A stretch of DNA of 64,000 nt from Kofleriaceae bacterium (GTDB taxonomy: Bacteria > Myxococcota_A > Polyangia > Haliangiales > Haliangiaceae): assembly GCA_048500355.1 (NCBI GenBank), contig JASNYD010000006.1, forward strand, positions 224,211 through 288,210. The letters are read 5' to 3'. The notes under the pieces were generated by a model that was not told the origin of the DNA, ran no database searches, and worked only from the letters and a program-made list of their open reading frames with translations. Numbering within the stretch: position 1 is the first letter of the stretch; each line of letters opens with the position of its first letter. Of this stretch, positions 42,349 through 62,838 are shown one piece after another. The translations under genes were made by a program, and so were the position numbers.

Positions 42349-42352
<4 letters not shown>
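41495..42352 (+). CDS. hypothetical lipoprotein
   Basis: [25 protein letters not shown] lipobox; 285 aa. Confidence 0.6.
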
Positions 42353-43458
<1,106 letters not shown>

Positions 43459-43527
43459 GGCGCCCCGGATCCCGCCGATCGCGCCCGGGAATCGCAAGCA
43501 TTCCAGGCACTCCGGGCGCGCAGCGAT

Positions 43528-43580
43528 GTGTCGCATCGCCGTGACCTGGCTGTCACACAGGCTCCCTAGGGTGCCTGTCG
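43528..43580 (+). promoter_or_regulatory. candidate Pho box / PhoB-binding region upstream of pstS
   Basis: TGTCGC...GTGACCTGGCTGTCACAC...CTGTCG immediately 5' of pstS ATG; TGTCAC-type half-sites and GTGAC/GTCAC inverted pair; spacing less regular than the element before the regulator gene. Confidence 0.3.
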
Positions 43581-44597
43581 ATGCGTCGCACCGCTGTCAC
43601 GCTCACCCTCCTGGTGTCGGCCCTGGCCGTCGCCGCCTCCGGCTGCTCCAAGCGCAAGGCCAAGGGCGGCACGATCAAGATCGACGGCTCGAGCACGGTC
43701 TTCCCGCTGTCGGCGGCGGTCGCCGAGACCTTCGCCAAGCAGCGCGGCGGCGACGCCTCGGTCGGCGCGTCGGGCACCGGCGGCGGCTTCAAGAAGTTCT
43801 GCCGCGGCGAGATCGACATCGCCGGCGCCTCGCGCCCCATCAAGGCGACGGAGGTCGAGGAGTGCAAGAAGGCCGGGATCGAGTGGATCGAGCTGCCGGT
43901 CGCCTACGACGGCCTGGCGGTGGTGGTGCACCCCAAGAACGACTGGGTCGACCACTTCACCGTCGACGAGCTCAAGAGGATCTGGCAGCCCGAGGCCCAG
44001 GGCAAGATCACGAGCTGGTCGCAGGTCCGCGACGGCTGGCCCGACCGTCCGCTGCGCCTGGCCGGCGCCGGCGTCGACTCCGGCACCTACGACTACTTCA
44101 CCCAGGCCATCGTCGGCAAGGAGCACTCCAGCCGCGGTGACTTCGCCCAGAGCGAGGACGACAACACCCTGGTCCAGGCGGTCTCCGGCGACGAGAACAC
44201 GATGGCGTTCTTCGGCTACGCCTACTACGCCGAGAACAAGGACAAGCTGAAGGTCGTCCCCATCGAGGACGGCAACCCCGACAACGGCGCCGGCCCGATC
44301 GCCCCCAGCCCCCAGACCGTGGTCGACGGCACCTACCAGCCGCTGTCGCGGCCGATCTTCATCTACGTCTCGGTCAACGCCGCCAGGAAGCCCGAGGTCG
44401 ACAAGTTCATCGGCTTCTACCTCGCGCAGTCGACCGAGCTCGCGGCCAAGGTCGGCTACGTCGGCCTGCCGGCCAAGGTGGTCGAGCTGGCCACGGGCCG
44501 GTACCAGGCCCGCACGACCGGGTCGATCTTCCGCGGCGGCTCGATGGTGGGCGTGACCCTGGAGAAGCTGCTGGCCGCCGAGGGTGGCGGTGGCTGA
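43581..44597 (+). CDS. pstS: phosphate ABC transporter substrate-binding lipoprotein
   Basis: Lipobox AASGCSK; PstS family motifs ([24 protein letters not shown]). Confidence 0.9.
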
Positions 44598-45544
44598 TGT
44601 CCGCCCCCGCACCTGAGGTAGCCTTGCCGGCGGTGGCCGCCCGGACCCGTGCCCAGCGTGCGAGCGGCCCGGGCGAGCGCGTCATCGAGCTCGGCCTGGC
44701 CGCCTGCAGCGCGGTGTCGATCGTGGTCACGGTCGGCATCGTGCTGGTGCTGGTGTTCGAGGCCGCCGAGTTCTTCCGCGCGATCCCGCTGACGAAGTTC
44801 TTCGGCGACACCGAGTGGACGCCGCTGTTCAAGGACAACCAGCACTTCGGCATCTGGCCGCTGGTGATGGGCACGCTCGTGACCTCGGCCATCGCCATGG
44901 CGGTGGCCCTGCCCTTCGGCCTGCTGGCCGCGATCTACCTGTCCGAGTACGCGGCGCCGCGCACCCGGCGCATGCTCAAGCCGGCGCTCGAGCTGCTGGC
45001 CGGCGTGCCCACGATCGTCTATGGCTACTTCGCGCTGACGGTGCTGACGCCGTTCCTGCAGCAGTTCATCCCCGGCCTGGCCGGCGGCAACATGCTGTCC
45101 CCCGGCATCGTCATGGGCATCATGATCATCCCGATGGTGTCGTCGCTGGCCGAGGACGCCATCTACGCCGTGCCCGACAGCCTGCGCGAGGGCGCGCTCG
45201 GCCTCGGCGCCGGCAAGCTGCCGACGATCCTGCGCGTGGTGGTGCCGTCGGCGTGGTCGGGCATCGCCGCCGCCATGACCCTGGCGGTGTCGCGCGCGAT
45301 CGGCGAGACGATGATCGTCGCGATCGCCGCCGGCAACCAGGCCAAGTTCACGACCGACCCGCGCGAGCCGGCGGAGACCATGACCGCCTACATCGTCAAC
45401 ATCTCCAAGGGCGACATCCCCAACGGCACGCTCGAGTACCGCACGATCTTCGCGGTCGGCCTGGTGCTGTTCGCGATGACGCTGATCATGAACCTCATCA
45501 CCTACCGCCTGTCGCGCAAGCTGCGCGCGCAGAGCCGGGCGTGA
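44597..45544 (+). CDS. pstC: phosphate ABC transporter permease
   Basis: ATG overlaps pstS stop (ATGA-type coupling); EAA-loop permease; 6 TM. Confidence 0.9.
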
Positions 45545-45554
45545 GGCGCGCGCC

Positions 45555-46439
45555 ATGAAGCCGGTCCCCCCCCCCATCGACATCAGCGGTCGCCGCGAGG
45601 GCGTGTGGTTCGAGCGCGGCTTCGTGTGGGTGTGCCGGGTCGCCATCGTCCTGCCGCTGGTCACCCTGGTCTGGCTCCTGGGCGGCGTGATCGCCCGCGG
45701 CCTCGGCCGCATCGACCTCGGCTTCCTGCTCGACGCCCCGTCCCAGCTCGACGCCACCACCGGCGGCATCTGGCCGGCGCTGATGGGCAGCCTGTGGCTC
45801 ATCGTCATCACCGCCGCGGTGTCGCTGCCGGTCGGGGTCGGGGCCGCGCTCTACCTCGAGGAGTACGGCAAGCGGACCCGGCTGGGCACGGTGGTCGAGA
45901 TCGCGATCGCCAACCTCGCCGGCGTGCCGTCGATCATCTACGGCATGCTGGGCCTGGGCCTGTTCGTGCGCTGGATGGCGCTGGGCGAGACCGTCATCGC
46001 CGGCGCCCTGACCCTGGCCCTGCTGGTGCTGCCGGTGGTGATCATGTCGTCGCGGGAGGCCCTGCGCACGGTCAAGGACTCGCTGCGCGAGGCCGCGCTC
46101 GGCCTGGGCGCCACCCGCTGGCAGACCACCCGCCACGTCGTCCTGCCCATGGCCATCCCCGGCATCCTGACCGGCGCCATCCTCGCGATCTCCCGGGCCA
46201 TCGGCGAGACCGCGCCGCTGGTGGTGGTGGGCGCGGTCGCCTTCATCCTCTACGCCCCCGACGGGCTCGACGCCGAGTACACGGCCCTGCCCATGCAGAT
46301 CTTCCAGTGGACGTCCAACCCCCGGCGCGAGTTCCTGACCAACGCCGCGGCCGGCATCGTGGTCCTGATGTTCACGCTGTTCCTGCTCAATTCGGTCGCC
46401 ATCCTGTTGCGCAACCGCTTCCAGAAACGCATGTACTAG
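45555..46439 (+). CDS. pstA: phosphate ABC transporter permease
   Basis: PstA-type permease, [13 protein letters not shown] region. Confidence 0.9.
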
Positions 46440-46446
46440 GGTCCTC

Positions 46447-47238
<792 letters not shown>

Positions 47239-47321
47239 TCCCGGACCGACCCGCGCGCACGCTCCCGGAGACGTTGCGGTCCCGTCACCGGGCCGTCATC
47301 TGGTGAGACGATGCTGCCACC

Positions 47322-48620
47322 GTGCCGACCCCGAAGCGCGTCGCGTTCGCAGCCCTCCTGACACACGTCGTCGCCACCGGCGGCCTCGCCGCCGCCCAGC
47401 CCGCGGGCCCCGCCGATCCCGACGAGGCCAGCCCCGCCGACCTCGCCGCTGGTGCCCCCGCCACCCCCGAGGGCGACCCGCCCGCCGACGGCGAGGAGGT
47501 CGAGGCCGAGGAGGTGGGCGAGCCGATCATCGATCGCGGCGAGCCCCGGGCCGAGGCCGGCTTCGACAAGGGCTTCTTCATCAAGAGCGCCGACGGCAAG
47601 TACAGCATGACGGTGACCGGGCGCGTCCACCCCTACTACAGCCTCGACCGCCGCACCGGGCCCGTCGACTACCGTCAGGCCTTCGAGGTGCGGCGCGCCC
47701 GCCTGGTCTTCGACGGCGACGTCCACGGCGATCACCTCGGCTACAAGCTGCAGATCGACTTCGGGCGCGGCGTGGTGACGCTCAAGGACTTCCACTTCGA
47801 CCTGGCGCTGGCCGACCAGGTCTGGCTGCGCGTCGGCCAGTGGAAGCGGCCGTTCTCGCGCCAGCACATCACCTCGAGCGGCCGCCAGGAGCTGACCGAC
47901 CGCGCGATCACCGACAAGGCCTTCGGCGCCGGCCGCGACGTCGGCCTCGCGCTGCGCAACGACTACGAGAAGTCGCCCGATCTCGAGTGGACCGTGGGCG
48001 TGTTCAACGGCACCGGCGACGCCGCCCGCCTGACCGGCACGGTCGAGGTCGACCCGGTCACCGGCGAGGGCACGATCACCGGCGGCGGACTGTCCAACGT
48101 GCCGACGACCTTCCGGCCGGCCGTCATCGGCCGCGTCGGCCTCAACGGCGGCAAGATCAAGGGCTACAGCGAGGCCGACCTCGAGGGCGGCGGCCTGCGC
48201 TGGGGCGCGGCGGCCAGCGTGTGGCTCGAGGGCGATCTCGACGAGAACGACGCGTCCAACCAGAAGGTCGAGCTCGACTACGTGGTCAAGCACTCCGGCT
48301 TCACCACCACCGGCGGCTTCTACGGCATGACCGCGCAGACCGCGGCCCAGACCTTCTCCAGCCAGGAGCTGGCCTTCGTCGGCTTCCACCTCCAGGCCGG
48401 CTACATGGTCACGCCCCGCGTCCAGCTCGCCGCCCGCTACGCGCTGGTCGACGCCCGGCTCGACGACAGCAAGGACCAGCAGGAGCTGGCGCTCGGCGGC
48501 AGCTTCTACGGCCACAAGCACGACGCCAAGCTGGCGGCGGCGCTGCGGCTGTTCAAGAACGGCGACGCCGGCTTCGGCGACGCGATCCTGCTCGAGGTGT
48601 CGAGCAACGTCGGCTGGTAG
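47322..48620 (+). CDS. outer-membrane porin, putative phosphate-selective (OprO/OprP-like), paralog 1
   Basis: Signal peptide, acidic Pro/Asp/Glu linker, beta-barrel-like alternating pattern; immediately downstream of pstSCAB. Confidence 0.65.
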   Translation: MPTPKRVAFAALLTHVVATGGLAAAQPAGPADPDEASPADLAAGAPATPEGDPPADGEEVEAEEVGEPIIDRGEPRAEAGFDKGFFIKSADGKYSMTVTGRVHPYYSLDRRTGPVDYRQAFEVRRARLVFDGDVHGDHLGYKLQIDFGRGVVTLKDFHFDLALADQVWLRVGQWKRPFSRQHITSSGRQELTDRAITDKAFGAGRDVGLALRNDYEKSPDLEWTVGVFNGTGDAARLTGTVEVDPVTGEGTITGGGLSNVPTTFRPAVIGRVGLNGGKIKGYSEADLEGGGLRWGAAASVWLEGDLDENDASNQKVELDYVVKHSGFTTTGGFYGMTAQTAAQTFSSQELAFVGFHLQAGYMVTPRVQLAARYALVDARLDDSKDQQELALGGSFYGHKHDAKLAAALRLFKNGDAGFGDAILLEVSSNVGW

Positions 48621-48684
48621 CCGGGGCCGGGCGCCCGGTGGCTCGCCGGCCCCCGACCCGACCGTATCTGTCTATGATGCCGGG

Positions 48685-50001
48685 ATGGGGCCCCCTCTGT
48701 CGCCACGCCCGCCCGCCGTCACCGCCGCGCTCGCCGTCGCCCTCGGGTTGACGCTCCTCGCCGACGCCGGCCTCGCCCGGGCCCAGCCCGCCGACGAGGA
48801 CGAGGCCTCGCCCGCCGATCTCGGCGAGCCCGACGCCGACCCCGGCGGCGACGCGGCCGGGGAGGACGAGGAGGTCGAGGCCGAGGAGATCGGCGGCCCC
48901 GAGATCGATCGCGGCGAGGGCGTGACCGAGGTCGGCTTCGCCGACGGCTTCTTCATCAAGGCCGCCGGCGGCAAGTACACGCTGCGCCTGAGCGGCGGCG
49001 TGCAGCCGGCCGCCACCCTGACCCGGACCACCGGCCCCAGGGACTGGACCGGCGCGTTCTCGGTCCGGCGCGCCCGCCTCGCCCTCGACGGCAACCTCCA
49101 CGGCAAGGCCCTGCGCTACGGCCTCCAGCTCGACGCCGGCGGCGGCGTGGTCTCGGCCCAGGATCTCTACCTCGACGTCGCGCTGGGCCAGCGGCTGTGG
49201 CTGCGCGCCGGCCAGTGGAAGCGGCCGTTCTCGCGCCAGCAGCTCACGCCCTATCAGCGCCTCGAGCTCGGCGAGCGCGCGATCACCGACGCCGTCTTCG
49301 GCGCCGGCCGCGATCTCGGCGTCGCCGTGCACAACGACCCCGGGCGCGCGTCCGGCCTGGAGTGGGCGGTGGGCGTGTTCAACGGCACCGGCGCGGCGCC
49401 GTGGCTCGGCGGCACGGTCGCGACCGATCCGGCGACCGGGGCCGGGACGATCACCGGCGGCGGCTTCACCAACGTCCCGCGCGAGCTGGCGCCGGCGGTG
49501 GTCGCGCGCGTCGGTCTCGCCGAGGGCGGCGACGGCTACAGCGAGGCCGACCTCGAGGGCGGGCCCCTGCGCTGGGGCGTCGCGGCCAGCGCCTGGCTCG
49601 AGGGCGACCTCGATCGCGACGACGCCTCGAGCCAGCGGGTCCAGCTCGACTACCACGTCAAGGTCGCCGGCTTCGCCTCCACCGGCGGCTTCTACGGCAT
49701 GACCCGCCAGACCGGCGCCCAGCCGTTCTCGACCCAGGAGCTGGCCGCGGTCGGCTTCCACCTCCAGGTCGGCTACCTGGTCGCGCCCCGGCTCCACCTC
49801 GCGGCCCGCTACGCGCTGATCGACGCTCGCCCGGCCGCCGGCGCCGCCGCCGCCGACCAGCACGAGCTCGCGCTCGGCGGCACGTACCACGGCCACGGCC
49901 ACCAGGCCAAGGTCACCGCCAGCGTCCGCCTCGTCAAGACCGGCGACGCCAGCCTGACCGACCTCGTGCTGTTCGAGCTGCTCGGCTTCGTCGGCTGGTA
50001 G
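48685..50001 (+). CDS. outer-membrane porin, putative phosphate-selective (OprO/OprP-like), paralog 2
   Basis: ~50% identical to the preceding gene over full length (shared GFFIK, WLRAGQWKRPFSRQ, WAVGVFNGTG, GFHLQ.GY, ARYAL.DAR, LELLGFVGW). Confidence 0.65.
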   Translation: MGPPLSPRPPAVTAALAVALGLTLLADAGLARAQPADEDEASPADLGEPDADPGGDAAGEDEEVEAEEIGGPEIDRGEGVTEVGFADGFFIKAAGGKYTLRLSGGVQPAATLTRTTGPRDWTGAFSVRRARLALDGNLHGKALRYGLQLDAGGGVVSAQDLYLDVALGQRLWLRAGQWKRPFSRQQLTPYQRLELGERAITDAVFGAGRDLGVAVHNDPGRASGLEWAVGVFNGTGAAPWLGGTVATDPATGAGTITGGGFTNVPRELAPAVVARVGLAEGGDGYSEADLEGGPLRWGVAASAWLEGDLDRDDASSQRVQLDYHVKVAGFASTGGFYGMTRQTGAQPFSTQELAAVGFHLQVGYLVAPRLHLAARYALIDARPAAGAAAADQHELALGGTYHGHGHQAKVTASVRLVKTGDASLTDLVLFELLGFVGW

Positions 50002-51737: not shown

Positions 51738-52190
51738 ATGTCGATGAACGGGGAGCTCCGCCTGATTCCGCCCGAGCTCATGGATCAGTTGGACGACGAG
51801 GATGTGGTCGACGGCCTGATGGATGGTGACGGGCTCTCCGTCGGCAAGGCGTGGAACGGCTTGCACTACCTCTATTGCGGCGACGGGACGGCGGGCGAGA
51901 GCGCGATCAGCGGTGGCATTCCCCTCGACCATGGCGACACCGGCTACGGGCCGCCGCAGTACCTGACGCCGGACGAGGTCGCGGCCTACGCGCGCGAGCT
52001 CGAAACGCTGACCGATGAGAGGCTCCGCGACGCATACGATGCGAAGGAGATGGAGCAGGAGAGCGTCTATCCGGGTGGCTGGGACGACCCGTCCAATCTG
52101 GAGTGGCTCCTCACAGAAGCGCGCAAGGTGCGCGAGTTCTATCGCGAGGCGTCGGCGAAGGGCGCGGGGGTATTGCAGTTCCTCGCGTAG
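51738..52190 (+). CDS. DUF1877 (YfbM-like) family protein
   Basis: 150 aa; resembles YfbM family (MSMNGELRLIPPELMDQL...LHYLY); noticeably lower GC than flanking genes. Confidence 0.65.
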   Translation: MSMNGELRLIPPELMDQLDDEDVVDGLMDGDGLSVGKAWNGLHYLYCGDGTAGESAISGGIPLDHGDTGYGPPQYLTPDEVAAYARELETLTDERLRDAYDAKEMEQESVYPGGWDDPSNLEWLLTEARKVREFYREASAKGAGVLQFLA

Positions 52191-52475
52191 TCGCTCTGCC
52201 TCGGCGAGAAGGTCGGGCTCCTCGCCGACGCGCGGCTCTGCCCCTGGACTGCGCCAAGTACCTCGCCGAGGAGGGCGACCGCCAGCACCTTCTTCGATCG
52301 TCGGGCGTGGCACGGGTCGTCCGTGTCGTCGCTTCGCGCCCGGTCGGCCTGGGGTGTCTGGTCCCCACGATGCCCTTCGTGTCACCCTGGTCGACGAAGC
52401 CGCGGGGATCACGCGGCCAGGCCCGCCGACAAGCCGCCGGCGACACCCCGGCGGGCGGGCGGATCGCGACACGGG

Positions 52476-53348
52476 CTACCCTTGCGCGTCCACGGCCTGC
52501 ACCGGAGCGCCGACGAGAATCGGTGCCATCAGGTCTTCCAGGCGCCGCCGCCGCTCTCCTGCGACGGGCGTCAGCGCCGTCTCGATCGACTCCGTCAGCT
52601 GGATGTACGTCAGCTCGCCCACCCGATCGACCCGGGCCGGCTCGACCTCCGCCTTGACGCGCGCCAGCCCGCCGATGGCCTCGAGGTGGCCGTCGTGGAG
52701 GTAGGTCCCCCAGCGCGGATGCCGGGCGTACCTGCGACCGATGAACTTGAACCACTCCGCGGCCAGGCTGGTCTGCTTCCGGAACCCTGCGGGCAGCCCG
52801 AGGTCGACGTCGCCCTGGGGCGTGTCGAGGATCAGGTTCATGAGCCACGTGTCGCAGATGGCCAGGTCGTACGTTGGCCACGCCCCGAGGATCGCGTGCA
52901 GCACACCCAGCTCCGTCACCAGCTCGTGCATCAGCTCGATCCAGGCAGCGAACGACTTGCCCGGCGGCAGCTCCGCCGATCGACACGTGACTCGCAGCTG
53001 GAAGGGCTCGTTCCATTCCTCTCGCGAGCGATCGAGGTTGAGCATGACCCTGGTGAAGTTCCCGTCCCCCCTCGCACGGTTCATGTAGAGGCGGCTCAGC
53101 TTGTCGGACCGCAGCCCCTCCAGGATCGGCGCCGAGCCATTCTTCCCTCCCACGCGGACCGACCTCCGGTCGTCTCGCTTGTGCAGCCCCGAGTACGACG
53201 CCCACCACGGGATCCATGGCCACCGCTTGTCGACCAGGAGGTCGGCGACGCGCTGCGCTCGGTCCGGGTCGACCCACACGGCCTTCTCGAAGAACGCCAC
53301 GAGACCGGCATGAGGAAACTGGCTGTTGATGCTCGGTTGCCGTGCCAC
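52476..53348 (-). CDS. Trp-rich 290-aa protein, tandem paralog 1 of 4 (putative immunity protein of the upstream secreted toxin-like protein)
   Basis: GTG start preceded by GGAGTAGGA; MARQPSINSQFPHAGLVAFFEKAVWVDPDRAQRVADLLVDKRWPWIPWWASYSG...; natural amino-acid composition, whereas all other frames are Arg/Pro/Gly junk; no signal peptide. Confidence 0.7.
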   Translation of the reverse strand: MARQPSINSQFPHAGLVAFFEKAVWVDPDRAQRVADLLVDKRWPWIPWWASYSGLHKRDDRRSVRVGGKNGSAPILEGLRSDKLSRLYMNRARGDGNFTRVMLNLDRSREEWNEPFQLRVTCRSAELPPGKSFAAWIELMHELVTELGVLHAILGAWPTYDLAICDTWLMNLILDTPQGDVDLGLPAGFRKQTSLAAEWFKFIGRRYARHPRWGTYLHDGHLEAIGGLARVKAEVEPARVDRVGELTYIQLTESIETALTPVAGERRRRLEDLMAPILVGAPVQAVDAQG

Positions 53349-53694
53349 GCGACATCCTACTCCGAGAGGTCGACCACGAGCGCTGTGTGAACCCCACCTG
53401 GCTGGTGACGCCGCGCTCGCCACGACCTCGCCATCACTGATCGCGACCAGCCGTTCGGGCTTGGATGTCGACGGAGGGGATGGCAGCTCGGATCGCGTCG
53501 CTCCAGGCCGAGATGGCGACCAGGGAGCGCGACGCCGTCGCGCGAACCTGGATCGCCCCGGTCGGCCTGGGGTGTCTGGTCCCCTCGATGCCCTTCGTGT
53601 CACCCTGGTCGACGAAGCCGCGGGGATCACGCGGCCCAGGCCCGCCGACAAGCCGCCGGCGACACCCCGGCGGGCGGGCGGATCGCGACACGGG

Positions 53695-54567
53695 CTACCC
53701 TTGCGCGTCCACGGCCTGCACCGGGGCGCCGACGAGAATCGGTGCCATCAGGTCTTCCAGGCGTCGCCGCCGCTCTCCTGCGACGGGCGTCAGCGCCGTC
53801 TCGATCGACTCCGTCAGCTGGATGTACGTCAGCTCGCCCACCCGATCGACCCGGGCCGGCTCGACCTCCGCCTTGACGCGCGCCAGCCCGCCGATGGCCT
53901 CGAGGTGGCCGTCGTGGAGGTAGGTCCCCCAGCGCGGATGCCGGGCGTACCTGCGACCGATGAACTTGAACCACTCCGCGGCCAGGCTGGTCTGCTTCCG
54001 GAACCCTGCGGGCAGCCCGAGGTCGACGTCGCCCTGGGGCGTGTCGAGGATCAGGTTCATGAGCCACGTGTCGCAGATGGCCAGGTCGTACGTTGGCCAC
54101 GCCCCGAGGATCGCGTGCAGCACACCCAGCTCCGTCACCAGCTCGTGCATCAGCTCGATCCAGGCAGCGAACGACTTGCCCGGCGGCAGCTCCGCCGATC
54201 GACACGTGACTCGCAGCTGGAAGGGCTCGTTCCATTCCTCTCGCGAGCGATCGAGGTTGAGCATGACCCTGGTGAAGTTCCCGTCCCCCCTCGCACGGTT
54301 CATGTAGAGGCGGCTCAGCTTGTCGGACCGCAGCCCCTCCAGGATCGGCGCCGAGCCATTCTTCCCTCCCACGCGGACCGACCTCCGGTCGTCTCGCTTG
54401 TGCAGCCCCGAGTACGACGCCCACCACGGGATCCATGGCCACCGCTTGTCGACCAGGAGGTCGGCGACGCGCTGCGCTCGGTCCGGGTCGACCCACACGG
54501 CCTTCTCGAAGAACGCCACGAGACCGGCATGAGGAAACTGGCTGTTGATGCTCGGTTGCCGTGCCAC
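53695..54567 (-). CDS. Trp-rich 290-aa protein, tandem paralog 2 of 4 (putative immunity protein)
   Basis: Identical or near-identical to paralog 1; same GTG/RBS context. Confidence 0.7.
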   Translation of the reverse strand: MARQPSINSQFPHAGLVAFFEKAVWVDPDRAQRVADLLVDKRWPWIPWWASYSGLHKRDDRRSVRVGGKNGSAPILEGLRSDKLSRLYMNRARGDGNFTRVMLNLDRSREEWNEPFQLRVTCRSAELPPGKSFAAWIELMHELVTELGVLHAILGAWPTYDLAICDTWLMNLILDTPQGDVDLGLPAGFRKQTSLAAEWFKFIGRRYARHPRWGTYLHDGHLEAIGGLARVKAEVEPARVDRVGELTYIQLTESIETALTPVAGERRRRLEDLMAPILVGAPVQAVDAQG

Positions 54568-54922
54568 GCGACATCCTACTCCGAGAGGTCGACCACGAGC
54601 GCTGTGTGAACCCCACCTGGCTGGTGACGCCGCGCTCGCCACGACCTCGCCATCACTGATCGCGACCAGCCGTTCGGGCTTGGATGTCGACGGAGGGGAT
54701 GGCAGCTCGGATCGCGTCGCTCCAGGCCGAGATGGCGACCAGGGCGGCCAACGGAGCGCGACGCCGTCGCGCGAACCTGGATCGCCCCGGTCGGCCTGGG
54801 GTGTCTGGTCCCCTCGATGCCCTTCGTGTCACCCTGGTCGACGAAGCCGCGGGGATCACGCGGCCAGGCCCGCCGACAAGCCGCCGGCGACACCCCGGCG
54901 GGCGGGCGGATCGCGACACGGG

Positions 54923-55795
54923 CTACCCTTGCGCGTCCACGGCCTGCACCGGAGCGCCGACGAGAATCGGTGCCATCAGGTCTTCCAGGCGCCGCCGCCG
55001 CTCTCCTGCGACGGGCGTCAGCGCCGTCTCGATCGACTCCGTCAGCTGGATGTACGTCAGCTCGCCCACCCGATCGACCCGGGCCGGCTCGACCTCCGCC
55101 TTGACGCGCGCCAGCCCGCCGATGGCCTCGAGGTGGCCGTCGTGGAGGTAGGTCCCCCAGCGCGGATGCCGGGCGTACCTGCGACCGATGAACTTGAACC
55201 ACTCCGCGGCCAGGCTGGTCTGCTTCCGGAACCCTGCGGGCAGCCCGAGGTCGACGTCGCCCTGGGGCGTGTCGAGGATCAGGTTCATGAGCCACGTGTC
55301 GCAGATGGCCAGGTCGTACGTTGGCCACGCCCCGAGGATCGCGTGCAGCACACCCAGCTCCGTCACCAGCTCGTGCATCAGCTCGATCCAGGCAGCGAAC
55401 GACTTGCCCGGCGGCAGCTCCGCCGATCGACACGTGACTCGCAGCTCGTACGGTTCGCTCCATTGCTCCTTCGTAGGATCGAGGTCGAGTGCGACCCTGG
55501 TGAAGTTCCCGTCCCCCCTCGCACGGTTCATGTAGAGGGTACCCATCTTGTCGGACCGCAGCCCCTCCAGGATCGGCGCCGAGCCATTCTTCCCTCCCAC
55601 GCGGACCGACCTCCGGTCGTCTCGCTTGTGCAGCCCCGAGTACGACGCCCACCACGGGATCCATGGCCACCGCTTGTCGACCAGGAGGTCGGCGACGCGC
55701 TGCGCTCGGTCCGGGTCGACCCACACGGCCTTCTCGAAGAACGCCACGAGACCGGCATGAGGAAACTGGCTGTTGATGCTCGGTTGCCGTGCCAC
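54923..55795 (-). CDS. Trp-rich 290-aa protein, tandem paralog 3 of 4 (mosaic variant; putative immunity protein)
   Basis: Same frame and length; central segment KMGTLYMNRARGDGNFTRVALDLDPTKEQWSEPYELRV differs from KLSRLYMNRARGDGNFTRVMLNLDRSREEWNEPFQLRV in the other copies. Confidence 0.7.
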   Translation of the reverse strand: MARQPSINSQFPHAGLVAFFEKAVWVDPDRAQRVADLLVDKRWPWIPWWASYSGLHKRDDRRSVRVGGKNGSAPILEGLRSDKMGTLYMNRARGDGNFTRVALDLDPTKEQWSEPYELRVTCRSAELPPGKSFAAWIELMHELVTELGVLHAILGAWPTYDLAICDTWLMNLILDTPQGDVDLGLPAGFRKQTSLAAEWFKFIGRRYARHPRWGTYLHDGHLEAIGGLARVKAEVEPARVDRVGELTYIQLTESIETALTPVAGERRRRLEDLMAPILVGAPVQAVDAQG

Positions 55796-56141
55796 GCGAC
55801 ATCCTACTCCGAGAGGTCGACCACGAGCGCTGTGTGAACCCCACCTGGCTGGTGACGCCGCGCTCGCCACGACCTCGCCATCACTGATCGCGACCAGCCG
55901 TTCGGGCTTGGATGTCGACGGAGGGGATGGCAGCTCGGATCGCGTCGCTCCAGGCCGAGATGGCGACCAGGGAGCGCGACGCCGTCGCGCGAACCTGGAT
56001 CGCCCCGGTCGGCCTGGGGTGTCTGGTCCCCTCGATGCCCTTCGTGTCACCCTGGTCGACGAAGCCGCGGGGATCACGCGGCCCAGGCCCGCCGACAAGC
56101 CGCCGGCGACACCCCGGCGGGCGGGCGGATCGCGACACGGG

Positions 56142-57014
56142 CTACCCTTGCGCGTCCACGGCCTGCACCGGGGCGCCGACGAGAATCGGTGCCATCAGGT
56201 CTTCCAGGCGTCGCCGCCGCTCTCCTGCGACGGGCGTCAGCGCCGTCTCGATCGACTCCGTCAGCTGGATGTACGTCAGCTCGCCCACCCGATCGACCCG
56301 GGCCGGCTCGACCTCCGCCTTGACGCGCGCCAGCCCGCCGATGGCCTCGAGGTGGCCGTCGTGGAGGTAGGTCCCCCAGCGCGGATGCCGGGCGTACCTG
56401 CGACCGATGAACTTGAACCACTTGGCCGCGAGGCTGGTCTGCTTCTGGAACCCTGCGGGCAGCCCGAGGTCGACGTCGCCCTGGGGCGTGTCGAGGATCA
56501 GGTTCATGAGCCACGTGTCGCAGATGGCCAGGTCGTACGTTGGCCACGCCCCGAGGATCGCGTGCAGCACACCCAGCTCCGTCACCAGCTCGTGCATCAG
56601 CTCGATCCAGGCAGCGAACGACTTGCCCGGCGGCAGCTCCGCCGATCGACACGTGACTCGCAGCTGGAAGGGCTCGTTCCATTCCTCTCGCGAGCGATCG
56701 AGGTTGAGCATGACGCTGGTGAAGTCGCCGTCCCCCCTCGCACGGTTCATGTCGAGGCGGCTCAGCTTGTCGGACCGCAGCCCCTCCAGGATCGGCGCCG
56801 AGCCATTCTTCCCTCCCACGCGGACCGACCTCCGGTCGTCTCGCTTGTGCAGCCCCGAGTACGACGCCCACCACGGGATCCATGGCCACCGCTTGTCGAC
56901 CAGGAGGTCGGCGACGCGCTGCGCCCGGTCCGGGTCGACCCACACGGCCTTCTCGAAGAACGCCACGAGACCGGCATGAGGAAACTGGCTGTTGATGCTC
57001 GGCTGCCGTGCCAC
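56142..57014 (-). CDS. Trp-rich 290-aa protein, tandem paralog 4 of 4 (putative immunity protein), translationally coupled to upstream gene
   Basis: GTG 8 nt after the TAG stop of the 734-aa gene, which fixes the start codon choice for all copies; a few substitutions (LSRLDM, GDFTSV, FQKQ, AAKWF). Confidence 0.7.
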   Translation of the reverse strand: MARQPSINSQFPHAGLVAFFEKAVWVDPDRAQRVADLLVDKRWPWIPWWASYSGLHKRDDRRSVRVGGKNGSAPILEGLRSDKLSRLDMNRARGDGDFTSVMLNLDRSREEWNEPFQLRVTCRSAELPPGKSFAAWIELMHELVTELGVLHAILGAWPTYDLAICDTWLMNLILDTPQGDVDLGLPAGFQKQTSLAAKWFKFIGRRYARHPRWGTYLHDGHLEAIGGLARVKAEVEPARVDRVGELTYIQLTESIETALTPVAGERRRRLEDLMAPILVGAPVQAVDAQG

Positions 57015-57022
57015 GCGAGATC

Positions 57023-59227
57023 CTACTCCGAGAGGTCGACCACGAAGTCCTTGAACAGCTTCCCCGCCGGCGGACAGTACTCGTAGACGCGCAGCTCCGG
57101 CTTGAGTTCGGCGGTCTGGCTGGCCTCGTCGAAGCAAGGGCGCAACACCTCGAGGTTGCCGGTCAGCTCGTCGCGCCTCTTCTTCCCGCGAAGTGCGTTC
57201 ACGATCTCCCGGATGCCGTCTTCGATCTGCACCTTCCCCAGCTTCCTGGCATCCTCGTTGTTCGGCTTGATCTCGACGACGTAGCAGACGTTCCCGTCCA
57301 CGCGGATGCAGTCGACACGGCGATTGCCATAGGTGAGCTCGCTCCTGGTGCACTTGCTCGAGTCGCCCTGGATGCGCCTGTGCTCCTGCTTGCCGACCTC
57401 GATCTGGGCTCGGACCTCCGGATCGTTGGCGCCGTTGAGCTCGTCGTTCAAGAGGCTCGCGAGGCTGCTGAGCCGACGCTTGACGCTGTCGCGCGCCTTG
57501 GTCGCAGCCTCGCGGATGTCATCGTCCTCGGCCTTCATGAGGCGCTCGGCGTGGCCGATGAGGGCCAGGCCGCTCGTGTTGATGTTCCCCCACTGGGGTC
57601 GGACGCGGTCGCGCATCCGGTCCGCGATCTCTCGTAGCTGCGCGGCGTGGGCGTCACCCTCCGCGTAGTCCCCGGGCGACTCGGGGATCGAGCAGAAGAG
57701 CTGCCGGACGTTCCGCGTGTCCTCGACGTACCAGCGACGGAGCTCCTTGATGCCATCGTCCCACCTCCGCAGCTCCGAGCGGAGCTGCGCCAGGTCGGCG
57801 GTGGCGCCCTTGAGCGCGGCCTGCAGCTGCTCGATCGCGGCCTTGGCGATCGGTCCGTCCTCGCCCATCGCGATCTTCTCGCAGTCCCGCTGCGCGATCT
57901 CGCGCGCCTTCTTCCAGTACTCGAAGGTGCTCTCGGCGGCGGTGCGGTACTTCCCGGTGAGGCTCGACCACTGTCCTTCGGAAGGTGCGAACCGCTGGGT
58001 CTCCGAGCGCGCACGCTCCATCGTCGCATGCTGCTCGTTGGTCTTCGCCAGGCCCGCGATGATCGGCTGAGCAAGAGACTTCGCTTGCAGCTTGATGTGC
58101 TCGATGCCCTTGGTGTCGTTCTTCTCGACGTAGCGGCGAACCAGGTCGGAGAGTCGCTGCGATGCCTCCTGACAGCGCTTGGGGGCGTTGTCGGCGAGGA
58201 ACTGGGCCTCCTTGAGCACGCGGAGCGGCTTCAGGGCCTCCCGCGCGGCGCGGACGTTGTTGCGCCACACCTCGAGCCGGCGCTTGGCCTCCCCGTCGTT
58301 GCCCTTGACGCGGTCGAGCTGTTCGAGGAGGCGGTCGATCTCGTTCAGCTTGCCGTCCGCCCGGGCGATGTCGGAGGCGTCGCTGTCGCCCGCGAGACCA
58401 TCGAGGCTCGACGCCATCTCGCCGAGCTGGCGGTCGAGCTGCTCGTAGACCATCTCGATGCCCCTCTTGCCCTCGTAGAGCTTCCTCATCGCATCCTCGA
58501 CCAGCGGGTTGCGCTCCTCCCGGGCGAGGTTGCCGCAGACGTCGTCGCGCTTCACCTGCTCCGACTGCTTGACGGTGTGCTCGTACATCGTGCGGGCAGA
58601 GGTGACGAGGTTGTTGCGGACGTCGCTCCACCTACCATCGCTGTACGAGAAGTCGTCGGCGCGATCGTACCAGGTGTACATCTCGTTCTTGGTCCGCTCG
58701 GCCTGCTCCATCGCCTCCTTGCCCACTCGGCCAAACTCGCGCGCGAGCTTGGGCACCTCGTCGACGCCGCGCGGGTCCGGACTGTCGGTGTAGGTCTTCA
58801 TCCGCGAGGTCAGCTCGCGCACCGCCTGCTCGCACTTCCTGGGCCACTCATCGACCTTGCGGTGGCCGTTCTTGAGCTCGCGCAGGTAGCCAGCGGCGTC
58901 CTTGTAGCGGCTGGCGATGTCCGGGTAGGACTCGCCCATGCGGCGGGCGTCGGAGTCGTCGTCGGCCTGGTTCTTGAGGTCGCGTGCCTTCTCGGAGACA
59001 CGCCCGGCGTAGTCGATGGTGCGGTCGAGGTCCGACGTGCTCGAGTCACCGGGCACGTCGCGCAGCTCGCTGGCGATATCGGAGAGCAGACGCTCGATCT
59101 CCTCGCGGAGCTGGCGGCGCTTCGACTCATCGGCCCGGACCGGGCCTCCGGACGCCAGCGCCACTACGCCGAGAGCCAAGGCGGCGAGCTGGATGCGGTG
59201 CACACCGCGCTGCTGTCTCTTCGTCAT
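57023..59227 (-). CDS. Sec-secreted 734-aa coiled-coil protein with C-terminal PD-(D/E)xK-like nuclease motif (putative polymorphic toxin / bacteriocin-like effector)
   Basis: ATG 59227 with GGAGG 7 nt upstream; signal peptide MTKRQQRGVHRIQLAALALGVVALASGGPVRA; ~600 aa of charged heptad-like helical sequence; C-terminal ~100 aa with RVDCIRVDGNVCYVVEIKPNN (D...EIK); lower GC than the genome. Confidence 0.75.
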   Translation of the reverse strand: MTKRQQRGVHRIQLAALALGVVALASGGPVRADESKRRQLREEIERLLSDIASELRDVPGDSSTSDLDRTIDYAGRVSEKARDLKNQADDDSDARRMGESYPDIASRYKDAAGYLRELKNGHRKVDEWPRKCEQAVRELTSRMKTYTDSPDPRGVDEVPKLAREFGRVGKEAMEQAERTKNEMYTWYDRADDFSYSDGRWSDVRNNLVTSARTMYEHTVKQSEQVKRDDVCGNLAREERNPLVEDAMRKLYEGKRGIEMVYEQLDRQLGEMASSLDGLAGDSDASDIARADGKLNEIDRLLEQLDRVKGNDGEAKRRLEVWRNNVRAAREALKPLRVLKEAQFLADNAPKRCQEASQRLSDLVRRYVEKNDTKGIEHIKLQAKSLAQPIIAGLAKTNEQHATMERARSETQRFAPSEGQWSSLTGKYRTAAESTFEYWKKAREIAQRDCEKIAMGEDGPIAKAAIEQLQAALKGATADLAQLRSELRRWDDGIKELRRWYVEDTRNVRQLFCSIPESPGDYAEGDAHAAQLREIADRMRDRVRPQWGNINTSGLALIGHAERLMKAEDDDIREAATKARDSVKRRLSSLASLLNDELNGANDPEVRAQIEVGKQEHRRIQGDSSKCTRSELTYGNRRVDCIRVDGNVCYVVEIKPNNEDARKLGKVQIEDGIREIVNALRGKKRRDELTGNLEVLRPCFDEASQTAELKPELRVYEYCPPAGKLFKDFVVDLSE

Positions 59228-59267
59228 CTGGAACCTCCACGCCTCGGTCGAGTAGAAGCACCGCAGC

Positions 59268-59340
59268 TTCTGGTCACTTTATCGCCGAGTTCGACATCTT
59301 GGTCAATCGCCATGACGGCGGTTTGACCGCGTCTGTGACC
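59268..59340 (-). promoter_or_regulatory. nested inverted repeats in the promoter region of the toxin-like operon (possible operator)
   Basis: CTGGTCAC...TTGGTCAA-N16-TTGACC...GTGACC, 40-110 nt upstream of ATG 59227 on the minus strand, in a low-GC noncoding stretch. Confidence 0.25.
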
Positions 59341-59871
59341 TCCTCATTCCGCGGACGAACTTTGCCACCCTGCATGCGCGGGCAAGGTGTCAGAGTCGAG
59401 GGCTATCGCGGCGAGGCGACCGTGCGGAATCTCGATCGCCATCGTGTCGTGGGTGTTCGTCGCCTCGGCGTGCATGGTGTCCTCGACGGGGTTCACGTCG
59501 ACGGACGACGAGCCCGATCGGTTCGTCTGATTCACCGGCCGTCGTTTGGTGTGATGTTCATGAGGCCCGGGCTCACGCACGAGACTACTCGCGAGCTGCC
59601 GCTGGCCGTATGATCAATCCCAGGATCGCCATTGACAGCCCGGTCTGCGAGGTGTCGGTGACGCGGAATCTGGGCCAGCCGGCGGGGACCGAAGGGCCTG
59701 CCCGTGGCGCTGCCGGCGCTGCCCCGCGCCCGCCGCACCACCGACACCGGGCTCGCGCCGGGCCTTGGGCCCACAATTGTCGTCGGTGGGCGACCTTCGC
59801 TGACGAAGAAAGATAGACCGACGCCGGGGCGGAGGCGTCGACAGGGGCACCAACACCTGGAGGCCCCGTCC

Positions 59872-61626
59872 ATGCTGCGTCGACCGATCGCCCGGTTCCT
59901 GTCCCGCTCGCTCCTCATGATGTCGCTGGCCCAGCTCGCCGTGGGCTGTAACCAGCGCGCCGCCGATCGCGCCGGCGCCATCGGCCGCGCCAGCGACACC
60001 GGCGGCACCGCCGCCGGCACCGGGGTCCCCGGTGACACCACGACCGCGGTGGTCGTCGACTCCACCGCGTCCGACCGGCCCGCGGAGGAGCGCCGCAAGG
60101 CCGAGGCCAGCCAGACCACCGCCCCGCACGCGGCGCCGACCGGCGCCACCGGCGTGGGGGCCGGCGGCGCCGCCACCGGAGGCGCGCTCGCGGCGGCGCC
60201 CATGTACCGCGGCGGCAAGGGCCGCGGCGCGCCGGCCGCCGACGGTCAGTCGGGCGAGGGCTACAAGCACTACGGCGCCAACGCCTGGACCGACACCACC
60301 CGCGACCACCTGTCGACCTTCGCCGCCGACGTCGACACCGCCAGCTACACGATCGCCCGCCGCAAGCTGACCGAGGGCAGCCTGCCGCCCGCCGCCGCGG
60401 TCCGGGTCGAGGAGTTCGTCAACTACTTCCGCTACGGCTACCCGGCGCCGACCGGCGGCCAGCCCTTCGCCGTGCACCTGGACGCCGCGCCGTCGCCGTT
60501 CAACCCCGGCCGCCACGTCCTGCGGGTCGGCGTCACCACCCGGACCAAGAGCATCGCCGAGCGCAAGAAGGCCAACCTGGTCTTCCTGGTCGATGTCTCG
60601 GGCTCGATGCACGCGCCCGACAAGCTCGAGCTGGCCAAGCGCTCGCTGCGCATCCTGGTCGACAACCTCAAGGACGGCGACACCGTCGCGCTCGTGACCT
60701 ACGCCGGCTCGACCCGGGTGGTGCTGCCGGCCACCGGCCTCGAGCACAAGGGCCGCATCGTCAGCGCGATCGAGGACCTGACCGCCGGCGGCTCGACCGC
60801 GATGGGCTCGGGCCTCGAGCTGGCCTACCAGGAGGCGATGAAGGGCCTGGGCCCCGACGCCGAGAGCCGCGTGCTGGTGCTGTCCGACGGCGACGCCAAC
60901 GTCGGCGCGACCTCGCACCGCGAGCTCCTCGACCGCATCGCCGGCAAGGTCAAGGAGGGGGTGACCCTGTCGACGATCGGCTTCGGCATGGGCAACTACA
61001 AGGACGAGATGATGGAGCAGCTCGCCAACAAGGGGAACGGCAACAACTACTACATCGACGGCCTGTCGCAGGCGAAGCGGGTCTTCGCCGAGCAGCTCGG
61101 CTCGACGCTCGAGGTCGTGGCCCAGGACGTCAAGCTCCAGGTCGACTTCGATCCCGGCCAGGTCGCGCGCTACCGCCTGGTCGGCTACGAGAACCGCGAC
61201 ATCGCCGACGACAGCTTCCGCGACGACAAGGTCGACGCCGGCGAGATCGGCGCCGGCCACCAGGTGACCGCGCTCTACGAGCTCGAGCTGACCCGCGACG
61301 CCGACAAGCGGCGGCCGCTGGTCACCGTCCGCGTCCGCCACAAGGCGCCCAAGGGCACCCGCGCCGAGGAGGCGGCCTTCGCCTTCGCCCCCGCCAGCCT
61401 CGCCCCGAGCTTCGCCGCCGCCTCCGCCGACCTCCGCTTCGCGTTCGCCACCGCCGCCTTCGCCGACGTCCTGCGCGGCGCCGAGGACGCCGAGCACTGG
61501 AGCCTGGCCGAGATCGGCAAGCTGGCCGCCGCCGCCGCCGGCGACGACGCCGACCGCAAGGAGCTGGTGAGCCTGGTCGAGCGGGCGCGCGCCCTGCGCG
61601 GCGGCCAGGCGACCCTGGCGAGGTAG
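59872..61626 (+). CDS. von Willebrand factor type A domain lipoprotein (YfbK-like vWA/DUF3520 family)
   Basis: Lipobox LAVGCNQ; MIDAS motif DVSGSM...S..T; YfbK-like N-terminal region (VDTASYTI, VRVEEFVNYF). Confidence 0.8.
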   Translation: MLRRPIARFLSRSLLMMSLAQLAVGCNQRAADRAGAIGRASDTGGTAAGTGVPGDTTTAVVVDSTASDRPAEERRKAEASQTTAPHAAPTGATGVGAGGAATGGALAAAPMYRGGKGRGAPAADGQSGEGYKHYGANAWTDTTRDHLSTFAADVDTASYTIARRKLTEGSLPPAAAVRVEEFVNYFRYGYPAPTGGQPFAVHLDAAPSPFNPGRHVLRVGVTTRTKSIAERKKANLVFLVDVSGSMHAPDKLELAKRSLRILVDNLKDGDTVALVTYAGSTRVVLPATGLEHKGRIVSAIEDLTAGGSTAMGSGLELAYQEAMKGLGPDAESRVLVLSDGDANVGATSHRELLDRIAGKVKEGVTLSTIGFGMGNYKDEMMEQLANKGNGNNYYIDGLSQAKRVFAEQLGSTLEVVAQDVKLQVDFDPGQVARYRLVGYENRDIADDSFRDDKVDAGEIGAGHQVTALYELELTRDADKRRPLVTVRVRHKAPKGTRAEEAAFAFAPASLAPSFAAASADLRFAFATAAFADVLRGAEDAEHWSLAEIGKLAAAAAGDDADRKELVSLVERARALRGGQATLAR

Positions 61627-61674
61627 GCGTCCTGCCCCCGCGCCGGCGGCGCCCGCGCGGGGTATGCTCGGCCC

Positions 61675-62838
61675 ATGCGAGCGACTCCCGCGCTCCTCGC
61701 CGCCTGCGTCGCCGCCTGCGGCTTCGACCCGGTGGGAGGCGGCGACGACGACGGCGGCCCCGGCGACGCCCGCGACGCCCCCGGCGACGACGACGCCGAC
61801 CCCGGCGACGGCCCGCCCGCGGTCGACGCCACCGACGGCATGACGGTGGACGCGCGGCCGTCGCGCAAGCGACGCCTCACGATCGACGGCGCCCTCGTCC
61901 TCGGCAACCACACCGACTTCCCGCTGTGGGTCGAGGTCGTCGACCCCGCCGGCCTCGGCGCGCGGGCCCAGGCCGACGGCAGCGACATCTACTTCACGAC
62001 CCCGGGCGGCGTCGTCCTCGTCCACGAGCTGCAGCGCTACGTCAGCGCCGAGGGCCGGCTCGAGGCGTGGGTCAAGCTGCCGACCCTGACCGCGGGGGCG
62101 GCGGCGGCGATCGACCTCCACTACGGCGACCCGGCGCTGGCGCCCGCGCCCACGCCGACCGCGGTGTGGAGCAACGCCTTCCACGCCGTATGGCACCTCG
62201 ACGCCGCGTCGCCGGCCACCCAGCCCGACGCCACCGGCATGCGTAACGCCACCGCCAGCGGCGGGATGAGCGCGACCGACGTCGTCGCCGGCCGGCTGGG
62301 CCGCGGCCTGCGCTTCGACGGCGACGACGATCAGCTCGCGTTCACCAGCGGCTTCCTCGGCGCCGGCCCCCATACGATCTCGGCCTGGGTCGACCAGCGC
62401 GCCACCACCAACAACGACGCCCTGGTCGTCCTCGGCGACCCCGCCTGCTTCCAGTCGCGCTGGCTGCACACCCGGTTCGATCAGGGCACGATCGCCAGCG
62501 GCTTCTACTGCAGCGACTGGCCGAACTCGACCGTGGACATCCAGGGCGACGGCTGGGTGCTGCTGCACTGGGTCTACGACGGCAACACCTCCGGCGCGCT
62601 GTTCGTCGATGGCGTGCGCGTCGCCGGTCCGTTCACGTACCCCAGCGCGGCGGTCACGGTGGGCACCGACGGCTACATCGGGAACGCGCCGTCCGGGTTC
62701 GGCCAGAACATGGGCCTGAACGCGACGCTCGACGAGGTGCGCCTCGCGCGCGCCGCGCGGTCGGCGGGGTGGATCGCGACCGAGTACGCCAACCAGAGCT
62801 CGCCGGCCACCTTCTACACCCTCGGCCCCGAGGAGTAG
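61675..62838 (+). CDS. DUF2341 + LamG (concanavalin-A-like lectin) domain lipoprotein
   Basis: Lipobox VAACGFD; DUF2341 signature (RRLTIDGALVLGNHTDFPLWVEV...IYFT); LamG-like C-terminus (LDEVRLA). Confidence 0.75.
   Translation: MRATPALLAACVAACGFDPVGGGDDDGGPGDARDAPGDDDADPGDGPPAVDATDGMTVDARPSRKRRLTIDGALVLGNHTDFPLWVEVVDPAGLGARAQADGSDIYFTTPGGVVLVHELQRYVSAEGRLEAWVKLPTLTAGAAAAIDLHYGDPALAPAPTPTAVWSNAFHAVWHLDAASPATQPDATGMRNATASGGMSATDVVAGRLGRGLRFDGDDDQLAFTSGFLGAGPHTISAWVDQRATTNNDALVVLGDPACFQSRWLHTRFDQGTIASGFYCSDWPNSTVDIQGDGWVLLHWVYDGNTSGALFVDGVRVAGPFTYPSAAVTVGTDGYIGNAPSGFGQNMGLNATLDEVRLARAARSAGWIATEYANQSSPATFYTLGPEE

Follow-up and report, generated by a model that had tools for sequence, protein, structure and literature searches.

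The locus considered here lies on a 665-kb contig of a Kofleriaceae metagenome-assembled genome (MAG), whose source is an uncultured soil or sludge myxobacterium, and was analyzed within a window of 64,000 nt (the whole stretch of DNA given above; contig JASNYD010000006.1, positions 224,211 to 288,210). On the minus strand, at about 52.3-59.3 kb of the window, an open reading frame (ORF) for a 734-aa protein is followed by four tandem genes for a 290-aa protein. We interpret the products as a candidate polymorphic toxin and its immunity protein and use these names throughout; the toxin and immunity genes carry the locus tags HS111_37565 and HS111_37570, both annotated as 'hypothetical protein'. 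An earlier interpretation made without database searches (hereafter, the sequence-only reading) had placed the toxin, the four genes, the 8-nt gap and the order toxin, copy 4, copy 3, copy 2, copy 1, and all of these coordinates hold (Table 1). The tight tandem arrangement that it described applies to the junction of toxin and copy 4, where the TAG stop and the GTG start are separated by the 8 nt GATCTCGC, and not to the copies themselves, which are 346, 355 and 346 nt apart. The GTG start is backed by an N-terminal alignment with 33 homologs. The locus forms an island of lower GC content, 65-70% against 72-78% in the flanks, and GC at third codon positions is also below that of the neighboring genes. 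No sigma-70 consensus promoter was found upstream of the toxin by a promoter scan.

Table 1. Features of the toxin-immunity locus and of its surroundings (positions in the window)
Feature	Position	Strand	Description and basis
Toxin ORF	57023-59227	-	734 aa; ATG start; GGAGG 6 nt upstream; TAG stop
Sec (type I) signal peptide	59132..59227	-	aa 1-32: MTKRQQRGVHR, hydrophobic core, VRA↓DE; hydropathy maximum at aa 11-30
Conserved N-terminal rod domain	57860..59131	-	aa 33 to ~456; two ~220-aa five-helix modules, Cys pairs C132/C231 and C352/C449
Variable helical module	57428..57859	-	aa ~457-600; three long helices, 459-512, 521-564 and 569-595; C512
Predicted PD-(D/E)xK nuclease domain, Tox-REase-9 type	57023..57427	-	aa ~601-734 and stop; motifs, Pfam PF15650
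Immunity copy 4	56142-57014	-	290 aa; GTG start 8 nt past the toxin stop
Spacer between copies 4 and 3	55796..56141	-	346 nt
Immunity copy 3	54923-55795	-	diverged patch at codons 84-117
Spacer between copies 3 and 2	54568..54922	-	355 nt; equal layout, net length difference of 9 nt
Immunity copy 2	53695-54567	-	protein identical to that of copy 1
Spacer between copies 2 and 1	53349..53694	-	346 nt; identical to the spacer between copies 4 and 3
Immunity copy 1	52476-53348	-	last of the array
142 nt 3' of copy 1	52334..52475	-	array end; matches the first part of each spacer, 98% over 143 columns
Shine-Dalgarno (SD) sequence GGAGG	59234-59238	-	6 nt ahead of the toxin ATG; sequence reading
Non-coding region upstream of toxin	59228..59870	-	~640 nt, lower GC; direct reading; GC 0.66 against 0.72-0.78 in the flanks
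DUF1877 (YfbM-like) gene	51738..52190	+	convergent, abuts the array; Pfam PF08974, E 1e-28
VWA/YfbK-type lipoprotein gene, then LamG/Laminin_G_3 protein gene	59704-62838	+	divergent from the toxin upstream region; same order in independent assembly L023
Complete phosphate regulon block	38884-50001	+	including the porin genes; gene content in the rows below
PhoB-like regulator	38884-39585	+	
PhoR-like kinase	39653-41485	+	
PstS/C/A/B	43581-47238	+	
Two tandem paralogous porin O/P genes	47322-48620, 48685-50001	+	after the Pst block

The Sec signal proposed for the toxin is confirmed by the same signal features in the window protein and in all 25 of its homologs, each of which has a basic N-region, a hydrophobic core and a cleavage-type site, x-(R/H/S)-A↓D-(E/D), in differing sequences. 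A Cys at the predicted cleavage site occurs in 0 of the 25, and hence there is no lipobox. The mature window toxin contains exactly 10 Cys, all of them conserved, and in 23 of the 25 homologs the number is 10 or 12, a pattern that fits a predicted disulfide-bonded extracytoplasmic protein. The rod domain following the signal belongs to no Pfam family and is taken to be a trafficking or carrier domain. In the AlphaFold model (predicted local distance difference test, pLDDT, 85.5), residues 32-621 are helical, and the domain arrangement is unreliable, given a predicted template modeling score (pTM) of 0.45. The rod is modeled as antiparallel spectrin-like bundles, with about 2.6 repeats of ~220 aa (two full modules and a third shorter one), a repeat that is also detected by tblastn. 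Thus of the ~600 aa of coiled coil seen by the sequence-only reading, the all-helical character stands and the classical coiled coil does not. Divergence between toxin types starts just past a conserved C449-D-x-x-A-x-G block, and from one homolog to another the variable helical module beyond it is exchanged along with the nuclease domain; this module may serve as a linker or in entry to the target cell. Membership in the LXG/WXG100 group of type VII secretion substrates was rejected: LXG was matched by 2 of the 25 homologs at E 0.33 and WXG100 at E 0.066, below the cut-off, and a Sec signal is present.

The C-terminal domain carries the motifs G612-KQE-H616, D639 and E652-I-K654-P655, as well as five conserved Cys. 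Residues G612, H616, the E of SELTY, D639, E652, K654 and P655 are invariant in the homolog alignments and match the published Tox-REase-9 motifs GxxxH, E, D and ELKP, with YxxE occurring in some subtypes only. Pfam PF15650 (Tox-REase-9) is matched by 22 of the 25 full-length homologs (best E 4e-8) and by 10 of 12 isolated C-terminal domains (best E 4e-9); the window toxin itself gives E 0.053 (14.2 bits) and its isolated domain E 0.0024 (18.5 bits). The better-matching homologs are 44-67% identical over the full length, and nearly all database homologs bear a precomputed PF15650 label. Weaker matches of the domain are to Cas4, UL24, NERD and PDDEXK_9. The AlphaFold2 topology of residues ~601-734 is alpha-beta-beta-beta-alpha-beta; a sequence search of the Protein Data Bank (PDB) with the nuclease-domain profile gave nothing, even at E 10. 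From the homolog matches and the invariant motifs, the nuclease suspected earlier from its D...EIK motif is identified as a predicted PD-(D/E)xK nuclease of the Tox-REase-9 type, which would cleave DNA through a metal site formed by D639, E652 and K654.

A nuclease with a tightly coupled inhibitor gene in a low-GC island could also constitute an intracellular toxin-antitoxin or anti-phage module, the nuclease being freed on infection or stress. However, an effector acting in the cytoplasm would not have a conserved Sec signal, an even number of conserved Cys and 570 aa of extracytoplasmic rod, and the Pfam scans found no defense-type domains (PADLOC was not scanned). We regard such a module as extremely unlikely.

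The 290-aa protein, with 11 Trp and two non-conserved Cys, has no N-terminal hydrophobic segment, in agreement with the earlier statement that it lacks a signal peptide, and is therefore predicted to be cytoplasmic. A database search yielded 64 relatives, none of them labeled by Pfam and the few named ones all called 'hypothetical protein'. In their alignment the core A-R-H-P-R-W-G-T-Y-L..H..A-I-G-G is invariant and the region near residues 84-117 varies. PF11876 (TsiV, 'Type VI immunity for VRR-NUC', formerly DUF3396) is matched weakly by 19 of 35 aligned members (best E 0.0016); three members checked singly score 11.5-13.8 bits, the match being confined to the core motif, and the gathering score of 25 bits is not reached by any checked member. 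PF15579 (Imm52) is not matched by any member of the family, and a PDB sequence search with the family profile gave nothing, even at E 10. At the same time, the fold of the protein is shared with solved immunity proteins of type VI secretion systems (T6SS) that accompany PD-(D/E)xK nucleases, and its gene is encoded beside such a nuclease toxin. Since fold and gene context fit while the Pfam thresholds fail, we file the protein as a divergent branch of the TsiV/Imm52 superfamily, outside both Pfam families proper. The assertion of the sequence-only reading that it matches no family stands at the Pfam and NCBIfam thresholds and is lost at the level of fold. Of the profiles named there for comparison, a Tox-REase was found at the toxin C-terminus, below threshold in the window protein and with better matches in homologs, and Imm52 is unmatched; TsiV, not named there, is matched weakly.

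Conserved gene order and modular exchange link these two proteins. A phmmer search with rod residues 33-480 against 1.84 billion cluster representatives detected 168 relatives, and 78 of these were sampled for their C-terminal domains: 26 have Tox-REase-9, 12 have Ntox16 and in the rest none was recognized, the C-termini forming four sequence clusters. Homologs of the toxin keep its first ~456 residues and then diverge, so that the last ~280 residues fall into at least three subtypes, and all REase subtypes still end in the E-[IF]-K-P nuclease core. In most loci the N-domain is 57-70% identical, and the C-terminal types comprise at least three REase subtypes, Ntox16 and two others. The downstream gene changes with the warhead. 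The window subtype is followed by the 290-aa family, type 3 by a 268-aa protein sharing only the C-terminal half of that family (E 9e-27), type 2 by unrelated 206- and 264-aa proteins, and a toxin of the cysteine-rich C-terminal cluster (P0116, probably of the Ntox16 type) by a DUF6714/CPCC protein. Compared to the window, locus L003 is 61% identical in the N-domain and 30% in the C-terminus, without a matching immunity gene, whereas L011 is 43% identical in the N-domain, 56% in the C-terminus and 55% in the immunity protein. This decoupling of module identities points to a constant carrier on which warhead and immunity gene are replaced as one cassette. In at least 12 independent loci (L001, L006, L007, L009-L016 and L019), the toxin is immediately followed by the immunity gene; in L001 the two genes overlap by 4 nt, compared to the 8-nt gap in the window. 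Where relatives are named, they are MAGs of Kofleriaceae, Haliangiales or Myxococcales. The type-2 partners of L003 gave no significant match to the immunity profile (hhalign probability 1.4% and 0.1% for the 206- and 264-aa proteins); their 'R..YW.T.LG....AAGG' alignment is suggestive and was not counted as evidence.

A constant N-terminal region with variable toxin domains, and a downstream partner that changes with the toxin type, are the features by which polymorphic toxins are defined. Given the synteny in at least 12 loci, the exchange of warheads and partners, and the nuclease and immunity assignments, we find it very probable that this Kofleriaceae bacterium (Myxococcota) carries in the window a polymorphic toxin and its immunity gene, the latter amplified, as was proposed from the sequence. 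A different role for the same genes would be that of a nuclease secreted for nutrition or predation and checked inside the cell by an inhibitor, comparable to barnase-barstar or NucA-NuiA. It would degrade extracellular or prey DNA without delivery to competitors, and the inhibitor would only guard the producer against molecules folded before export. In favor of this role, the toxin has a Sec signal alone, no contact-dependent delivery apparatus was found at the locus, the nuclease domain is rich in predicted disulfides, as is typical of extracellular enzymes, and myxobacteria are predators that secrete hydrolases (cf. the review PMC10433427). But nothing would favor joint replacement of catalytic domain and inhibitor in a digestive enzyme, and here both change as cassettes on a constant carrier. 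One of the alternative warheads is Ntox16, named a toxin by Pfam; arrays of diverged immunity paralogs and orphan fragments are hallmarks of an arms race; and the immunity fold is that of proteins neutralizing injected T6SS nucleases. A nutritional nuclease is thus quite an unlikely explanation.

Several points nevertheless weigh against the polymorphic toxin interpretation. Both the window toxin and its isolated C-terminal domain score below the PF15650 gathering score of 27.3 bits, and fold searches with the full-length toxin model returned just generic helical proteins, leaving the nuclease fold without confirmation by structure comparison. The window immunity copies have no Pfam or NCBIfam match at all, and their number, four, comes from one MAG assembly. 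A disulfide-rich nuclease could act extracellularly. Finally, no secretion, lysis or import component is encoded among the checked flanking genes (the pho regulon, the two porin O/P paralogs, an fn3 protein, the VWA lipoprotein and the LamG protein), and exit from the periplasm and entry to the target cytoplasm are therefore not explained by the locus.

If the locus is a polymorphic toxin system, the 734-aa precursor would be exported through Sec and its signal peptide cut at VRA↓DE, and in the oxidizing periplasm the 10 conserved Cys would form about five disulfides stabilizing the long spectrin-like rod. The rod (aa 33-456) would be the conserved carrier, and the last ~280 aa, that is the helical module and the nuclease, the exchangeable warhead. 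The toxin would leave the cell by a route for which the locus has no genes, and its warhead would then enter the cytoplasm of related bacteria and cut DNA. The cytoplasmic 290-aa protein with its TsiV/Imm52 fold would bind the nuclease 1:1, its beta-sheet probably occluding the DNA-binding face or helix, by analogy with TseV3-TsiV3, and would protect the producer and its kin from incoming toxin. That a Sec substrate should call for cytoplasmic immunity is most readily understood if the toxin enters kin cells again, and we prefer this to a barstar-like safeguard because the polymorphism supports it. Contact-dependent killing machines with no known cargo exist in Myxococcota. Rather speculatively, the signal peptide and the disulfide-stapled spectrin-like rod might constitute a previously unrecognized trafficking module for polymorphic toxins of diderm bacteria. 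The toxin would then be a soluble periplasmic protein released as a free bacteriocin-like particle, in vesicles or via a contact-dependent killing machine, with module aa ~457-600 as an entry domain traveling with each warhead. As to the undescribed delivery type or family suggested by the sequence-only reading, the rod domain is indeed undescribed, whereas polymorphic toxins with a Sec signal only are already recognized (the 'T2SS' class, PMC3482391); a new delivery type is an open possibility.

The immunity array has a repeat period of 1219, 1228 and 1219 nt, and its four copies are 94-100% identical. Copies 1 and 2 differ by 2 nt and encode the same protein. Relative to them, copy 4 has 5 aa changes, clustered at positions 88-100 and 190-198, and copy 3 has 12, all in codons 84-117 (12 non-synonymous and 2 synonymous codon changes). 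In the immunity protein model, the patch of copy 3 maps to strands 84-91, 99-104 and 116-123, a position that would fit the proposed beta-sheet interface with the nuclease. Each spacer consists of 142 nt common to the downstream sequence of all four copies, 173 spacer-specific nt, and a 31-nt duplicate of the last 7 codons of the toxin (VVDLSE and stop) and of the AGGA-containing SD-like immunity leader. Because the spacers end in this duplicate, the signals for translation of the first copy were part of the amplified unit. The 173-nt segment (nt 143-315 of the spacers, e.g., 55827-55999) has no match after the last copy, in the toxin gene, in the rest of the window or in 28 related loci, and it is not accounted for by simple tandem duplication of the sequence as it is today. 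On the plus strand this segment opens a short ORF (MSTEGMAARIASLQAEMATRE...), which may be a relic of a lost convergent gene. The spacers gave no Rfam match and no significant fold (z -1.8), and a scan of them found no consensus promoter and terminator-like sites no commoner than in shuffled sequences.

Three short-read assemblies with an identical toxin gene all stop 29-239 nt past the toxin stop, at or just inside the first immunity copy, where a repeat would cause such breaks. Alleles from other samples are mosaic: one (P0259) combines the patch of copy 3 with residues 190 and 198 of the copy 4 type, and another (P0261) carries just the first three changes of copy 3. Exchange between immunity copies is thus still going on. 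The same mosaic alleles make strain mixtures plausible, and the array might be partly an artefact of mis-resolved reads or of such mixtures, with a true copy number lower or higher than four; the locus comes from a MAG, copies 1 and 2 are nearly indistinguishable, two spacers are identical, and short-read assemblies fail to cross the region. However, three protein variants and two spacer lengths alternate in order with every reading frame intact, whereas assembly noise would more likely bring frameshifts, and multi-copy arrays of the immunity gene occur independently in other organisms. These include three copies 77-80% identical in L002, three at 35-73% in L020 and at least two in L008; the gaps of the diverged L002 array are ~30 nt, in contrast to 346-355 nt in the window. 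We consider an artefact unlikely, and two copies would leave the biological interpretation unchanged.

In the polymorphic toxin system that we favor, the immunity gene, together with the last 31 nt of the toxin and the ribosome-binding site, would have been amplified recently to four copies, and unequal crossing-over and gene conversion between the copies would now be shuffling two small variable patches. The array may provide a higher dose of immunity and the first steps toward broader specificity. On another contig of the same MAG there are frameshifted or truncated fragments of the immunity gene (HS111_25140 and HS111_25155; P0063 and P0260), which are orphan remnants. In L011, at 8658-9194, past an intact toxin-immunity pair, a fragment of a toxin C-terminus is followed by immunity-gene fragments, a displaced-cassette pattern typical of polymorphic toxin loci. 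A 313-aa protein from a JGI metagenome (P0055), in which the first 165 residues of a toxin (signal peptide and rod start) are fused directly to the C-terminal half of an immunity protein, appears to be a deletion derivative of a comparable locus.

Among the neighboring genes, the DUF1877 gene that abuts the array is recurrent in the toxin family: homologs 83-91% identical flank the toxin loci L003 (1503-1955 and 7042-7494) and L004 (4450-4902 and 9965-10441), where copies stand on both sides of type-2 toxin loci in another genus-level MAG whose toxin N-domains are 61% identical. It may mark a conserved landing site or be another immunity-like gene, and it is uncertain whether it belongs to the toxin system; a literature search for DUF1877/YfbM as an immunity protein found nothing useful. 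On the other side, the VWA gene probably starts near 59872, and its signal is lipoprotein-like. In most relatives, the toxin is adjoined on either strand by a gene for a lipoprotein of ~231 aa with PASTA-like domains and a lipobox of the type ..A-x-C-S-F-S.. (L001, 5117-5809; L003, 2340-3035; L005, 5292-5987; also L004, L006, L007, L009, L011, L014 and L015). It might assist in release or in display at the surface, and a search of the window for it found no copy.

Interbacterial toxins of Myxococcota are known mainly from Myxococcus, namely SitA, which is transferred by outer-membrane exchange (OME), and the T6SS. If our interpretation is true, the toxin family described here, confined to uncultured Kofleriaceae and Haliangiales, fits neither of these routes and offers a defined cargo for finding a new release or import pathway in diderm bacteria. 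The TsiV/Imm52 fold was earlier tied to T6SS effectors of the VRR-Nuc and Tox-REase-5 types, and since it stands here beside a Sec-exported Tox-REase-9 nuclease, it would seem to counter PD-(D/E)xK toxins generally, irrespective of how they are delivered. The near-identical four-copy array with its shuffled patches would be a rare snapshot of the first step of a polyimmunity array, with the relatives standing for subsequent stages of greater divergence. In practice, modest use can be expected from the new pair of nuclease and inhibitor and from the rod as a rigid, modular scaffold.

The rejection of Rhs, CdiA, T6SS effectors and SitA by the sequence-only reading is borne out, as no PAAR, VgrG, Hcp, MIX, RHS/YD, TPS or FHA Pfam domain was found in the toxin or in 102 relatives, the toxin has no CdiA domain and no lipobox, and there is no apparatus among the checked flanking genes. 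The closest T6SS systems are TseV/TsiV, in which VRR-Nuc effectors are paired with DUF3396 immunity proteins (TseV1-4/TsiV1-4 of Salmonella bongori; PA0822/PA0821 of P. aeruginosa). TseV is delivered by the T6SS and has a PAAR-like domain, in place of which the window toxin carries a Sec signal followed by a helical rod; the nuclease of the latter is Tox-REase-9-like and not VRR-Nuc. The immunity protein of the window does not reach the PF11876 threshold and in length falls ~70 aa short of PA0821, and there are four copies with 350-nt spacers, not two adjacent genes. TseT/TsiT (PA3907/PA3908) is a T6SS-delivered Tox-REase-5 effector with Imm52; the nuclease subfamily in the window differs, and PF15579 is not matched.

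Tox-REase-9 (PF15650) was defined by the motifs GxxxH, E, D and E[LI]KP, and its listed architectures include a signal peptide only ('T2SS') (Zhang et al. 2012, PMC3482391); in both respects the window toxin is alike. The published partner is Imm54, the N-terminal partners are RHS, HINT and LXG, and the range covers Actinobacteria, Gammaproteobacteria, Bacteroidetes, Chlamydiae and Firmicutes, with no deltaproteobacteria or Myxococcota (PMC3482391). In the window, by contrast, the partner has the Imm52/TsiV fold and the carrier is the rod, and since Zhang et al. list Imm54 and no deltaproteobacteria, the pairing with a TsiV/Imm52 fold and the myxobacterial lineage are new details.

SitA proteins are lipoprotein toxins of Myxococcus transferred by TraAB-dependent OME, with the immunity gene directly downstream (see PMC5562445). 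The window toxin resembles them as a myxobacterial, Sec-exported polymorphic toxin with a cytoplasmic immunity gene directly downstream, and some relatives of the locus, unlike the window, have an adjacent accessory lipoprotein gene reminiscent of sitB beside sitA. However, because none of the 25 homologs has a lipobox Cys, the toxin would lack the outer-membrane anchor of OME cargo.

In general layout, the window toxin resembles the nuclease colicins and S-type pyocins, which have a soluble, elongated, largely helical carrier, a C-terminal nuclease, an immunity gene immediately downstream and the combination of a constant carrier with a varying warhead. Colicins lack a signal peptide and depend on a lysis protein for release. 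Membership in the colicin type was rejected, since Pfam shows neither a colicin nor a pyocin domain in the window toxin and a Sec signal is present; the helical part of the toxin is modeled as repeats of bundles, which are predicted to be stapled by disulfides.

Homogeneous polyimmunity loci are tandem same-strand paralogs of one immunity family, proposed to serve as a backup against variant toxins; as a rule the paralogs are diverged and closely spaced, and no toxin adjoins them (Zhang et al. 2012). The immunity genes of the window are likewise tandem, on the same strand and of one family, whereas the array is attached to its toxin, 94-100% identical and interrupted by gaps of 346-355 nt with a toxin-tail fragment. 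Overall, duplicated DUF3396 genes after their toxin and polyimmunity arrays in general are already described; the undescribed element is the N-terminal rod alone, and what is unusual is the recency of the amplification and the 350-nt spacers.

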